From Escherichia phage LF82-1: a stretch of 64,000 nucleotides of DNA. Every line of letters begins with the position of its first letter. Within the stretch, counting starts at the first letter, position 1. This document shows positions 33,355 to 49,235 of the stretch, one piece after another. Under the pieces are notes generated by a model. That model worked only from the letters and a program-made list of their open reading frames with translations. It did not search any database and was not told the DNA's origin. The stretch is taken from sequence record PV648359; one strand, given 5' to 3'. The position numbers were made by a program, and so were the translations under genes.

Positions 33355-33385
33355 GCAAAAAAGCCCCAACCTTTCGGAAGGGGCT
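33355..33385 (-). terminator. Rho-independent terminator AGCCCCUUCCGAAAGGUUGGGGCU plus U-run
   Basis: Identical hairpin at 33985..34008 and 49212..49235. Confidence 0.6.
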
Positions 33386-33389
33386 TTGA

Positions 33390-33947
33390 TTAGTTTTTGT
33401 AATATCGTAAAGGGTTGATATGGAATGAAAGCATTGCGCGTGGAATAGGACGTCTCAAAAGACTCTTAAGTTTCCAACCACAGTAAACACGCAGATAAAA
33501 TGTAATACCACCAACCTTAAGATAAGGTATAGCAGCGAATAATCCCCATGCAGACTCGTTCCAAACTAAAAGATATCCATGATGTGCTGGGTCAGGAGAT
33601 CCTGATTTAGTTTCGGCGTTGCCTTTATAGTGCCATTTTGATGAAGCTTCGCGACCTAAAACATGATACGAAAAATTATATGCTTTGTTGCGCCATAACC
33701 AAGCTACGCGTTGAGCATATTTACCTATAACAGGAATTTTACGTATTTTAGACCAACGTTCAACATGGCCACGGTCACCATCGATAGGATTATCGTAAGT
33801 CATCATCCAGTCAAAGCCATAAGGTAGTTTACCGGTTTTTTCACTATGGAATGGAACTACAAATGGTGCTAGAATAATTGCTAAAATCGCTGCGATCCAA
33901 TCTATAGGAACAAGAACAACCCAACTTACATATTTTAAAAATTTCAT
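33390..33947 (-). CDS. Membrane protein (185 aa) preceded by a late promoter
   Basis: N-terminal hydrophobic helices; TATAAATA 25 nt upstream; terminator downstream. Confidence 0.55.
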   Translation of the reverse strand: MKFLKYVSWVVLVPIDWIAAILAIILAPFVVPFHSEKTGKLPYGFDWMMTYDNPIDGDRGHVERWSKIRKIPVIGKYAQRVAWLWRNKAYNFSYHVLGREASSKWHYKGNAETKSGSPDPAHHGYLLVWNESAWGLFAAIPYLKVGGITFYLRVYCGWKLKSLLRRPIPRAMLSFHINPLRYYKN

Positions 33948-33971
33948 ATATCCTCTCTTAGTTTACAAGGA

Positions 33972-33979
33972 TATTTATA
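33972..33979 (-). promoter_or_regulatory. Late promoter TATAAATA (minus sense)
   Basis: Plus-strand tatttata; fused to the upstream terminator U-run. Confidence 0.55.
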
Positions 33980-34008
33980 CAAAAAGCCCCAACCTTTCGG
34001 AAGGGGCT
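33980..34008 (-). terminator. Rho-independent terminator (copy of 33355..33385)
   Basis: Same 24-nt hairpin plus U-run. Confidence 0.6.
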
Positions 34009-34014
34009 AGTAAA

Positions 34015-34317
34015 TTAGATAGATGTAGGCTCTAATTTTATTTTCATGAACTCGGCAAATTGTCTGGCGGTTTTTATGCCTTGTTCATGACATTCAAATG
34101 CATCATCACAGGGGCTATTTTTGTAATGCTTTGCCATATACTTATAGAATTTTTCAGAGTTCTCGACATTTTGAATTTCAAACAAAGTATATACGTTTTT
34201 AATCCCTGATTCCATAAAGTTATCAAAGTATGGGTCAATATGTGCAGTACCAACGATAGGAGTTGTTGCTGCAAAAAACCCCAGCATCGCCATGACAGCT
34301 ATCGCTCTTAAGGCCAT
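34015..34317 (-). CDS. Secreted or membrane-anchored small protein (100 aa, signal peptide)
   Basis: N-terminal MALRAIAVMAMLGFFAATTPIVGTAH. Confidence 0.5.
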   Translation of the reverse strand: MALRAIAVMAMLGFFAATTPIVGTAHIDPYFDNFMESGIKNVYTLFEIQNVENSEKFYKYMAKHYKNSPCDDAFECHEQGIKTARQFAEFMKIKLEPTSI

Positions 34318-34329
34318 ATAGGCCTCCTG

Positions 34330-34542
34330 TTAATTTTGGCCAGTATTTATTTTTCGCCTTTGGACGGCCTTAACATCTGTGAGGTATTTTTCCAGCTTGC
34401 GCTTGCGTGTATAATCAGCTTTAGAACCAGTTTGACGGATATCCTCGTTTAAATGAGAAATAGAATGTCCTAATTCTCTTCGGATTTCATCCAATTGGGT
34501 TACAGTAAGATTACGAAGTTGTCTTTCGTTTAATTGCTGCAT
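34330..34542 (-). CDS. Hypothetical protein (70 aa)
   Basis: ORF track. Confidence 0.45.
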
Positions 34543-34569
34543 ATATACCTCTTGGTTAGATATTAGTAT

Positions 34570-35151
34570 TTATAACAACCCTGTCAAATCATTCCAATGC
34601 TTCCGGCATAATGACACGTATCTATCAGTATCACCAATTTCAATTTGACTGCCATCTGTAATTGGAAGTCCGTCTTCCGTGACTCTAGCTACCATTGTGG
34701 CCTTTTTACCACAATGACAGACACCTTTAAGTTCAACAAGCTTATCGGCAATAGCCATTAATGCTTGAGAACCTTCAAATAGATTACCTTTAAAATCTGT
34801 TCGTAGTCCATATGCCATTACTGGCACATTGTATACGTCAACAATACGACTAAGTTGATACACCTTTTCAGTAGTTAAGAACTGAGCTTCGTCAACAAAT
34901 ACACAATGAATATCCTTTTGTGCTGCAGCCCATTTATAGAATTCAAAGATGTCCATGTCTTTTGTAATTATATTGGCATCCTGACGAATACCAATACGAG
35001 AGACTATTTCACCTTTTGAATCACGAGTATCAATAGCCGGTTTAAGAACTAATACACCCATGCCACGTTCTTTATAGTTATGTGCGGCAGTAAGTAATGA
35101 AGCAGACTTACCAGCGTTCATAGCGGCATAGGTAAAAATTAAACTAGCCAT
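34570..35151 (-). CDS. tk: Thymidine kinase
   Basis: 193 aa; P-loop AAMNAGKS, FVDEAQF, C-terminal Zn motif CHCG...CRKH. Confidence 0.93.
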   Translation of the reverse strand: MASLIFTYAAMNAGKSASLLTAAHNYKERGMGVLVLKPAIDTRDSKGEIVSRIGIRQDANIITKDMDIFEFYKWAAAQKDIHCVFVDEAQFLTTEKVYQLSRIVDVYNVPVMAYGLRTDFKGNLFEGSQALMAIADKLVELKGVCHCGKKATMVARVTEDGLPITDGSQIEIGDTDRYVSLCRKHWNDLTGLL

Positions 35152-35341
35152 AAGAGTCCTTAGTTAAATTTTCTAAATATGTTTCTAAATCATTTTCAGC
35201 TTTATTGATAGATTTTACTAATTCGTAGTATGTTTCGGCATCTCCATATTCAGAAGATATTTCAAAAGACAAATCCTTTTCTAAACTAATAATTTCACCA
35301 ACTAAAAATAATATTTCGTTCTTTTGTTCGCGAGTAATCAT
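35144..35341 (-). CDS. Hypothetical acidic protein (65 aa)
   Basis: ORF track. Confidence 0.45.
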   Translation of the reverse strand: MITREQKNEILFLVGEIISLEKDLSFEISSEYGDAETYYELVKSINKAENDLETYLENLTKDSYG

Positions 35342-47612: not shown

Positions 47613-47613
47613 A

Positions 47614-47841
47614 TTATTTTTTAATCAAATTGACATAAAACTTGGCGTCTTCCGGGTGCATGCCTTCACAGTATTCTTCAACCATGAACTTCTTAACAGC
47701 TTCATAAGGACCACTCAGATTAAGCTCAGTTGTCCAGAACTTGGAATCTTGGACTGAATCGATACGAACTTCAGGGTGACGGTTGCGAATAACTTCTTCG
47801 GTGTATTCATAATCAACGACATCAATACTAACTTTAGCCAT
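47614..47841 (-). CDS. Hypothetical protein (75 aa)
   Basis: ORF track. Confidence 0.5.
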   Translation of the reverse strand: MAKVSIDVVDYEYTEEVIRNRHPEVRIDSVQDSKFWTTELNLSGPYEAVKKFMVEEYCEGMHPEDAKFYVNLIKK

Positions 47842-47898
47842 TTTGTTTTCCTCTTGATTTGATGTGATTACTATAACATAAACTTACTTAGATGTAAA

Positions 47899-48054
47899 TT
47901 ATTTCAACGTCACCTTTAGCGGCTTTATAACCTTCAGCCCAAGATACAACAGAGTTTTTATCTGAGGATTCAAATTCAGGCATTGGACTTTCACCAATAT
48001 TCACACAGTATGTTTCTTCATTTTCATCGAACCAAATAATTAAAGTAGTCATTT
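47899..48054 (-). CDS. Small acidic protein, about 51 aa (below the ORF-track threshold)
   Basis: Hand translation MTTLIIWFDENEETYCVNIGESPMPEFESSDKNSVVSWAEGYKAAKGDVEI; SD GAGGAG. Confidence 0.3.
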
Positions 48055-48120
48055 TGTTTACTCCTCTGTAGTTGATAAGTCTATAGTATCACCATCCTTG
48101 GTGTTTGTACATCATTATTT

Positions 48121-48426
48121 TTAATTTTTCCAACTTAACAACTTGTAGTATCCTTCATTCGTACGTGGTTTATCCCAAGAAATACTAATATATGATTCAC
48201 TGTCAATAGAAGTCGCCGGGTTTTTCTCTACCGTAAGACCTTCACTTTCCAGCCATTCAATAGTATTTGCGCATAAATCAGAAGAACACCTCATCGGGAA
48301 CCGGCAAGATTTTTCACCTTTAGCTGCAGTGTTATACATCTTTTCTAAAATACGCTTTTGCACGTTTTTAAAAATAGTTTCAGCAGATTCTTCAGATTTT
48401 TTATTCAGTTCAGTATAAAGACTCAT
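48121..48426 (-). CDS. Hypothetical protein (101 aa)
   Basis: ORF track. Confidence 0.5.
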   Translation of the reverse strand: MSLYTELNKKSEESAETIFKNVQKRILEKMYNTAAKGEKSCRFPMRCSSDLCANTIEWLESEGLTVEKNPATSIDSESYISISWDKPRTNEGYYKLLSWKN

Positions 48427-48504
48427 ACTATTCTCCTCATGTTTTAATAGGACTATAGTAACACATCTAGGGAAGAAGTAAACAACTTTTTCAGTAAGTT
48501 ATAG

Positions 48505-48535
48505 ACCCCCTAAAGGGGACCGAAGTCCCCATTCT
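48505..48535 (-). terminator. GC-rich hairpin element (CCCC-UAAA-GGGG overlapping GGGGAC-CGAA-GUCCCC)
   Basis: After the stop of the IPIII-like gene; related to 30509..30545 and 8663..8680. Confidence 0.4.
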
Positions 48536-49162
48536 TTACTTACGAGTTTTTGCATACTGAGCAGCGTCAGCAGCCAAACGACCTGCCTGACGAAGTTTTT
48601 CTTTAATCGCATCATGAAGTGGTTGAGTATACTTCAAACCTTCGATAGTCAAATAAAGACGATAAAGGTCTGGGGTATCAAGGTTGTTGATATGTTGGCC
48701 ATTGCGAAGACTATTGAATTCACGAACGAGTGAAGATGTATCGGATTCAATATCACGAACAAGCGAAGATAGTTGTTTATATTTTTTTTCCAGGCTAGAA
48801 GTATCAAACTTAAGAGCAGGAGCTTTAGGAGTTGCTTTTACTTCCGGCTTAGGCTCAGGTTTTGCTATTGCTTTAGGGGTCGCAGGTTTAGGAACGGTAG
48901 GAGCAGGTTTTACTTTAGGCGAGCCCGATTTAGCAGAAACACCACCACTAACAATATCTTTGAATGCTTTAGAAGCTCTGTAATATTCTTTTTGGCTGGA
49001 AGTGTCGATACCGTACATGGCTTGAACGTTTTTGAAAAACTCTGTACTAGTTTTTGTACCAGAAATAGCATCGTAAGCAGCTTGCCATTTCTCTTTTGTC
49101 ATACGTACACCGGCTTCGGTGATTACTTCCGTTTCGGCTAAAAATTCATTAAAAGTATACAT
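48536..49162 (-). CDS. Internal head protein (IPIII-like), Pro/Lys/Ala-rich middle
   Basis: 208 aa; N-terminal MYTFNEFLAETEV resembles the capsid-targeting sequence; late promoter upstream. Confidence 0.6.
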   Translation of the reverse strand: MYTFNEFLAETEVITEAGVRMTKEKWQAAYDAISGTKTSTEFFKNVQAMYGIDTSSQKEYYRASKAFKDIVSGGVSAKSGSPKVKPAPTVPKPATPKAIAKPEPKPEVKATPKAPALKFDTSSLEKKYKQLSSLVRDIESDTSSLVREFNSLRNGQHINNLDTPDLYRLYLTIEGLKYTQPLHDAIKEKLRQAGRLAADAAQYAKTRK

Positions 49163-49197
49163 TGATGGTCCTTAGAAAGTAGGTTTATTGTTTACTA

Positions 49198-49205
49198 TAT
49201 TTATA
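49198..49205 (-). promoter_or_regulatory. Late promoter TATAAATA (minus sense)
   Basis: Plus-strand tatttata 36 nt upstream of the IPIII-like ATG. Confidence 0.55.
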
Positions 49206-49206
49206 C

Positions 49207-49235
49207 AAAAAAGCCCCAACCTTTCGGAAGGGGCT
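49207..49235 (-). terminator. Rho-independent terminator (third copy of the AGCCCC...GGGGCT hairpin)
   Basis: Hairpin plus U6 in minus sense. Confidence 0.6.

Follow-up and report, generated by a model that had tools for sequence, protein, structure and literature searches.

Whether a short hairpin serves only to separate transcripts or also marks the places at which genes are exchanged is the question raised by a repeat in Escherichia phage LF82-1. The stretch analysed (the window) is 64,000 nucleotides (nt) of sequence record PV648359 and is 100% identical to the LF82-2 record PV648360.1 (Mosigvirus, an RB69-like T-even phage); a window position equals the record position minus 96000. The 24-nt sequence AGCCCCAACCTTTCGGAAGGGGCT occurs three times in the window, and two of its copies lead into a late-promoter motif, TATAAATA. 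The hairpin together with this predicted late promoter probably forms a linker that also serves as a homology patch for the insertion and excision of gene cassettes. The three copies are:

33362-33385, minus strand: hairpin copy A, downstream direct repeat of a module behind the gene rI, followed by TTTTT and G
33985-34008, minus strand: hairpin copy B, the other direct repeat of that module, on its upstream side
49212-49235, minus strand: hairpin copy C, past the 3' end of an rnaC homolog, ortholog of the T4 hairpin AGCCCCGACCGAAAGGTTGGGGCT

All three copies are exact. The window contains no further match with up to three mismatches (0 in 100 shuffles), and the whole 169,999-bp genome contains no other copy with up to five. 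The minus strand is the orientation of all genes adjoining the three copies, and the minus-strand RNA AGCCCCUUCCGAAAGGUUGGGGCU folds with -16 to -18 kcal/mol (z -2.8 to -3.5): a G+C-rich stem of 6 bp leads to an internal loop of 2x2 U/U, beyond which two C-G pairs carry the GAAA loop. On its 3' side the hairpin is followed by 5, 4 and 5 T in copies A, B and C, respectively, which with the closing T of the stem gives 5-6 U. Hairpin, T-run and a G, about 30 nt, are common to all three copies (A and C share the hairpin, T5 and G, 30 nt), and B and C have in common a longer stretch of 39-40 nt, consisting of the hairpin, T4-5 and GTATAAATAT, in which the T-run differs by 1 nt. Each hairpin closes a gene or operon of its own orientation, lying 6 nt past the stop codon of rI (B), 4 nt past that of a DUF7338 gene (A) and 42 nt past rnaC (C). 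The sequence thus has the features of an intrinsic terminator, namely a stable G+C-rich stem-loop, an adjoining U-run (rather short) and a position at a gene or operon end. A simple terminator scan of both regions did not call hairpins A, B and C because its stem rule disallows an internal loop; as the thermodynamic fold is strong, the miss was rejected as evidence against a terminator. The genome has 38 terminator-like hairpins, and the 35 other than A, B and C all differ from the 24-mer.

What stands behind the hairpins is of two kinds:

33972-33984, minus strand: U-run and late-promoter motif of copy B, TTTT, G and TATAAATA, read from the sequence
49198-49211, minus strand: U-run and late-promoter motif of copy C, TTTTT, G and TATAAATA, the motif position being conserved in other genera
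33318-33346, minus strand: T4 early-type promoter GTTTAC-N17-TATAGT after copy A, predicted to serve a 59-aa mobD.2a-like gene at 33290-33111 (named after the RB69 annotation)

In copies B and C a single G separates the T-run from TATAAATA (33979-33972 and 49205-49198). The distance from motif to ATG is 24 nt with a GAGAGGA ribosome site in copy B and 35 nt with an AAGGA ribosome site in copy C. Copy A is without TATAAATA; its T-run and G lead into the early-type promoter, which has an upstream TG and is also picked up by a sigma-70 scan. The repeat unit is therefore the hairpin and not a fixed 40-mer. The initial annotation had listed the hairpin three times with a U-run in minus sense, and these copies, their coordinates and the runs of 4-5 T plus the closing T are as it described, with no additional copy in the genome. 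Its statement that two of the U-runs pass straight into TATAAATA is correct to within one base, the intervening G. The repeated unit of roughly 40 nt that it proposed describes B and C and fails as a general repeat, since copy A continues into a promoter of early type. The proposed anatomy, in which a putative terminator abuts a predicted late promoter, is supported by sequence, position and conservation, and it is plausible that a transcript would end and a late one start at such a unit. Outside the window, two tail-fibre genes have between them a hairpin of different sequence, GGAGACTTCGGTCTCC, followed by TTTTT CGCG TATAAATA (PV648360.1 ~58470-58525; L026 ~8470-8525), so the layout of terminator and late promoter is not unique in the genome.

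Copies A and B delimit a small module behind rI, for which the relevant features are:

34015-34317, minus strand: rI, lysis-inhibition gene, ending just before copy B
33390-33947, minus strand: DUF7338 gene of 185 aa (Pfam PF24027, 8.6e-62; phrog_2143), with one N-terminal hydrophobic segment by hydropathy
33357-33979, minus strand: module of predicted late promoter, DUF7338 gene and hairpin, 623 bp, its placement being ambiguous by the length of the ~30-nt repeat

In JM10, 172859UKE1 and RB69, aligned to the window, one hairpin past rI runs straight into the early promoter of copy A. These genomes are without exactly 623 bp, which is the spacing from A to B, and their flanks are otherwise collinear. 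Because the empty relatives miss exactly this spacing and keep one hairpin, A and B are direct repeats that bound a presence/absence module. The empty junction is present in one piece in 132 of the 163 matching records of the phage collection (Mosigvirus-like, including RB69), and the filled state is found in 22 records; a DUF7338 protein of at least 95% identity is confined to these 22. Compared with LF82-2, the filled genomes have identities of 97.1-98.6% in the cassette, 94.7-97.0% in rI and 97.6-97.8% in tk. In the tk flank the empty JM10 and UKE1 (99.4-99.9%) are closer to LF82-2 than the other filled genomes are. The cassette having diverged as far as its neighbours and empty genomes being nearest in tk, the polymorphism is old within the genus and incongruent with the flanks.

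At the rI site T4, RZ and MX01 have the gene rI.-1, behind which stand an unrelated hairpin of UUCG type and, past it, an early promoter. The rnaC-type hairpin at rI is therefore specific to Mosigviruses and is best accounted for by the history of the cassette. Unlike T4, the Gaprivervirus RZ and the Dhakavirus MX01, Mosigviruses lack rI.-1 behind rI (33985-34330 compared with L023, L035 and L036). The solo hairpin of the empty genomes may be either a leftover of excision or a landing pad for integration. The 185-aa membrane protein that had been noted behind copy B is the DUF7338 protein with its single hydrophobic segment; the description of its surroundings as an otherwise early region does not stand: about 600 nt upstream, at 34574-34567, lies a further TATAAATA that has a good ribosome site and stands before the rI.1/rI pair.

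The third copy lies in a different context, at the end of the tRNA/stable-RNA cluster:

49278-49416, minus strand: rnaC homolog (T4 species 1 stable RNA) that ends the cluster, 137 of 139 positions identical to T4 rnaC
48536-49162, minus strand: 208-aa gene with an internal-protein-type leader (MYTFNEFLAE), occupying the slot behind rnaC; phrog_2280, of unknown function
48452-48530, minus strand: a different hairpin belonging to the 208-aa gene, GGGGACTTCGGTCCCC (48530-48515), then an early-type promoter, GTTTAC...TATAGT (48483-48452), both read from the sequence

rnaC is preceded by a homolog of rnaD (101 of 118 positions identical to T4), tRNA-Arg and tRNA-Met. The rnaC and rnaD homologs were located by alignment to T4, an Rfam scan around copy C having returned two tRNAs only. 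Both (49278-49542) are unannotated in the GenBank record, in which an annotated coding sequence (49539-49883) overlaps the rnaD homolog by 4 nt. T4 has a hairpin, AGCCCCGACCGAAAGGTTGGGGCT, with a T-run about 50 nt past its rnaC, identical to copy C at 22 of 24 positions. Its matching place after rnaC and this identity make copy C orthologous to this T4 hairpin, which marks the distal end of the tRNA/stable-RNA cluster. Behind AGCCCCGACCGAAAGGTTGGGGCT, T4 possesses neither TATAAATA nor a gene, and the e.8 early promoter follows about 190 nt on. The leader MYTFNEFLAE of the 208-aa protein is of the capsid-targeting type (with a hydrophobic-x-Glu end) and resembles MKTYKEFINE and MKTYQEFITE elsewhere in the window and MKTFKEF of T4 IpI. 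The protein has no Pfam match, and by its N-terminal leader it is a putative T-even internal protein, which agrees with the internal-protein gene that had been placed behind copy C.

The genes behind this hairpin vary widely. Two IMG/VR scans, one for the hairpin and one for the conserved rnaC-distal anchor, were combined with annotated genomes and gave 19 distinct sequences of the slot. Its contents are the DUF7338 gene, at least five kinds of leader-bearing genes (MKTYNEFLNE.., MKTYNEFLTE.., MKSYAEFLTE.., MKTYAQFLMTE.. and MKSYTQFLNE..), the 208-aa type, or nothing (T4, L014 and L028). The motif TATAAATA stands 0-2 nt past the T-run in 13 of the 16 distinct filled alleles, all from T-even-like phages, and the remaining three have it with one mismatch; none of the three empty alleles possesses it. 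In the Dhakavirus contigs L010 and L021 the units are in tandem, hairpin, T, G, TATAAATA and DUF7338 being followed by hairpin, T, G, TATAAATA and IP205, a homolog of the window's 208-aa gene (64-66% identity) that here stands one unit further down. L017 has IP157 and then DUF7338, and L022 has DUF7338 alone. In the empty L014, the T-run of the hairpin passes directly into the sequence found in RZ past the gene's second terminator. The junctions examined all fall in the hairpin, the T-run or the promoter. The initial annotation was thus incomplete, having missed both that copies A and B bound a 623-bp module and that copy C is the conserved rnaC-distal terminator candidate at the head of a hypervariable slot.

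The DUF7338 gene connects the two sites. Its homologs in the Gaprivervirus RZ, the Dhakavirus MX01 and the Gelderlandvirus STP4-a (74-76% amino acid identity) lie directly past the tRNA/stable-RNA cluster, where LF82-2 has copy C. Upstream of the RZ gene stand the identical 24-mer and TTTTTTATAAATC, and the gene's downstream terminator is a different hairpin. In MX01 it stands between two identical copies of a variant, AGGCCCTTCCGAAAGGTTGGGCCT, in which one stem pair is changed on both sides; the upstream copy is joined to TTTTTGTATAAATAT and the downstream copy to a T-run and an early promoter. Additionally, the start of the 5' leader, TATAAATAT..GTAAACTAA, is common to copy B of LF82-2 and to Dhakavirus. 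As the homologs share flanking hairpins, motif and leader start, the gene moves together with its promoter, leader and hairpin as one unit.

The DUF7338 gene is found at or in tRNA clusters in three phage groups, to which LF82-2 is the exception. In RB16 (L008 1501-2070) it lies one gene past two tRNAs, and in the Felixounavirus Alf5 (L038 601-1158) it lies between tRNA-Leu and tRNA-Gln with spacers of 21 and 8 nt. These spacers leave no room for the hairpin, and its travelling with DUF7338 into Felixounavirus was therefore rejected. A few Felixounavirus records label DUF7338 a 'holin'; in LF82-2 the gene adjoins rI.

The hairpin itself varies in a restricted manner. In the eight variants compared the structure is kept, the internal loop being UU, GA, UC or AG, or one C-G pair being replaced by G-C with compensation; this last change is that of Dhakavirus. 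At the rnaC slot the inner stem with its GAAA loop (CCGAAAGG) is invariant across genera while the internal loop varies. The pattern among copies within one genome is mixed with respect to concerted evolution: the gene of MX01 lies between copies of a single variant, L018 has two variants and phage AV109 has a private change in one copy. L018 479-1150 (IMG/VR contig 2974735671) contains a DUF7338 remnant in which the first codons are fused to the last ~20 codons, flanked by the variant AGCCCC... upstream and AGGCCC... downstream. This suggests that L018 is a hybrid of two lineages. The same hairpin core, with up to 34 nt identical including the T-run, also occurs in L011 (2730-2753), L016 (6962-6985) and L015 (1161-1184), and the core is found in the Grimontviridae Aeromonas phage BUCT695 (L037, 2001-2028). 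The metagenomic contigs L011 and L016 were considered as related phages and rejected, since, apart from these 34 nt of hairpin and T-run, nothing in them resembles any phage record. The core hairpin in unrelated phages could be due to convergence or to horizontal spread of a terminator.

Taken together, these arrangements may be accounted for as follows. The 24-mer would be the intrinsic-terminator hairpin that closes the tRNA/stable-RNA operon past rnaC in T-even-type phages, and in most of these it appears to be fused through its U-run to a late promoter of the gp55 type, TATAAATA. Such a linker would stop upstream transcripts and start the late transcript of the gene behind it. As the linker is conserved and the genes behind it are variable, it may act as a portable module boundary. 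We infer that homologous recombination across copies of the hairpin, with or without T-run and promoter, inserts, excises and reorders late-gene cassettes, either by excision and integration of a circle carrying one linker and one gene or by unequal crossover. The cassette of late promoter, DUF7338 and hairpin, which in other genera occupies the rnaC slot, lies behind rI in LF82-2 and 21 other Mosigviruses, and it is by this placement that copies B and A would have arisen as direct repeats.

Several observations weigh against this explanation. The motif TATAAATA is not enriched in the window (6 minus-strand occurrences and 1 plus-strand occurrence, where about 6 would be expected on each strand), and a frequency not above chance makes it, taken by itself, a weak indicator of a promoter. 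The roles in termination and late initiation are read from motifs, and with TATAAATA not enriched and the U-run short, the regulatory function is put forward as a prediction. Termination may be only partial, given the short U-run, the internal loop in the stem and the failure of the scan to call the hairpins. The homology patch is only ~30-40 nt long. A second repeat is not obligatory, as the RZ gene ends in a non-matching hairpin. In phage AV109 (L040) the equivalent of copy B has its loop changed from GAAA to TAAA and the other copy in the same genome is unchanged, so the copies are not actively homogenised by frequent conversion. Finally, the event at the rI site may have been either an insertion into a resident hairpin or a loss from an ancestral filled state, and the distribution might also be due to a single deletion that ordinary recombination in the flanks has spread.

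This last point leads to an alternative in which the unit is regulatory only and the gene is passive cargo. The cassette would have arrived once by an illegitimate event that replaced rI.-1, would have been lost once, and its states would have been spread by recombination in the flanks, the hairpin being no point of exchange. A single replacement fits the absence from Mosigviruses of rI.-1 and of the UUCG hairpin found in T4, RZ and MX01, an old polymorphism fits a cassette divergence equal to that of the flanks, and RZ has a gene whose downstream hairpin does not match. However, even a single loss would have occurred between two hairpin repeats, since the empty genomes keep one copy and their flanks are unchanged. 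In addition, the rearrangements of the rnaC slot, which are independent in several genera, all join at the hairpin, T-run or promoter, as in the empty L014 at the T-run. On balance this account seems unlikely. A stronger version of the preferred reading, in which the linker mediates exchange as something more than passive homology, holds that the rnaC-type hairpin and late promoter form an active, preferred recombination site, targeted through structure or by protein, with circular intermediates, and dedicated to carrying late accessory cassettes, among them those for injected internal proteins with anti-defence roles, from locus to locus and from one co-infecting T-even phage to another; this we regard as rather doubtful.

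It has also been considered that the hairpin, as DNA or RNA, is the recognition site of a specific protein such as a recombination initiator, a homing-type nuclease or an RNA processing or stabilising factor. Arbiol et al. speculate that stems with G-runs and C-runs in comparable elements are targets of a specific protein (PMC2839356), and GGGC/GCCC motifs are present in about half of the 13 T4 deletions of Mosig et al., in the form in which these are cited there. The invariance of CCGAAAGG at the rnaC slot beside a varying internal loop, and the same core and T-run in unrelated phages, would be expected of such a site. Yet no candidate protein was identified, none of the copies in the window has a homing endonuclease gene beside it, strong terminators commonly have GNRA loops and G+C stems, and the invariance may reflect recent common ancestry, which together make a protein-binding site improbable. 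Independent convergence on an optimal terminator, with three copies of unrelated origin, could draw on the presence of the core hairpin in the unrelated L011, L015, L016 and Aeromonas phage BUCT695. As a general explanation it has hardly any probability, and for the three copies in LF82-2 it is excluded: all 24 positions are identical in all three copies and the identity extends into T-run and promoter, the other 35 terminator-like hairpins of the genome differ, the hairpin at the rI site is a different one in other genera, and the boundaries of the indel coincide with the repeat. The explanation retained here is a linker that marks sites of cassette gain, loss and relocation and that probably mediates these events.

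Elements of related design are known in T-even phages. Recombination at PeSL elements, in which a stem-loop terminator is joined to an early promoter, was proposed, and mini-circles were demonstrated, in RB49/phi1 (PMC2839356). Comeau et al. 2014 (PMC4122927) extended them to T4/PST and KVP40/nt-1, including a middle-promoter form, PmSL. The three copies in LF82-2 likewise each join a stem-loop terminator candidate to a promoter, a ribosome site and a start codon, are repeated in the genome, lie at the edges of indels or replacements between close relatives, and include tandem copies that flank small non-essential genes. The proposed mechanism, recombination between copies with excision and integration of circles, is also the same, although for LF82-2 it is proposed from sequence comparison. 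Copy A, a hairpin with an early-type promoter, fits the T-even PeSL description directly. Copies B and C, with the late-type TATAAATA, differ from it in the promoter. A further difference is that one specific, highly conserved G+C-rich hairpin, the rnaC-distal terminator, is used here in place of a loose consensus, and that it has only three copies per genome. All three copies are in variable, non-structural regions, and separate early-promoter linker families have 5-9 copies in the window. The term 'late promoter' has 0 occurrences in Arbiol 2010 (PMC2839356), and the forms named in the available part of Comeau 2014 (PMC4122927) are early (PeSL) and middle (PmSL) ones only. Copies B and C are thus a late-promoter analogue of PeSL/PmSL, of which no description was found in the literature searched.

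Repoila et al. described in 1994 elements at the ipI and ipII/ipIII loci with T4 early promoters and weaker, A+T-rich stem-loops, according to the summaries in PMC2839356 and PMC4122927. As far as these summaries go, the likeness lies in hypervariable loci at which leader-bearing internal-protein genes are swapped and in a conserved regulatory sequence thought to guide shuffling; in the window, too, leader-coding DNA and early-promoter linkers are repeated. The difference, to the same extent, is that the slot in LF82-2 lies between rnaC and e.8, where T4 is empty, and that it combines a late promoter motif, a G+C-rich stem and one cargo that is not an internal protein. T4 itself, in the two regions examined, has a single copy of the rnaC-distal hairpin with no late promoter or gene behind it. 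The lambdoid morons of Hendrix et al. 2000, in the outline given by PMC2839356, are similarly single accessory genes with their own promoter and terminator between backbone genes, present in some relatives only. Compared with that outline, the genes in LF82-2 have the same orientation as their neighbours, and the insertion point is a shared regulatory repeat and not an undefined illegitimate junction.

If the preferred reading holds, the role of PeSL-type elements in shuffling would extend from early-promoter cassettes to late-promoter linkers, and the slot behind rnaC would be a third hot spot at which T-even phages exchange internal proteins and other late accessory genes. Several injected internal proteins of T-even phages are known inhibitors of host restriction systems (PMC12373910). 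The natural filled and empty alleles, with a 623-bp module between identical 30-nt repeats in genomes ~99% identical, offer a gauge of the minimal homology for T4-type recombination. The compact unit is also useful in annotation, as it predicts where an operon ends and where a late transcript starts. How T4 transcription is understood remains the same.

The window also contains other repeats of these general types. Linkers with an early promoter and a ribosome site (GTTTAC...TATAGT...AGGAGAA..ATG) occur between 23640 and 52291 in the families D1-D5, with 5-9 copies of 60-90% identity, and are presumably T-even PeSL-type elements. Five open reading frames of the window have an internal-protein leader, with minus-strand starts at 52221, 51870, 49162, 41092 and 40007. 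The DNA that encodes the leader is itself a repeat (families D6, D8 and D9), 30 nt being 100% identical between 51848-51877 and 52199-52228, and it offers another homology patch for shuffling.

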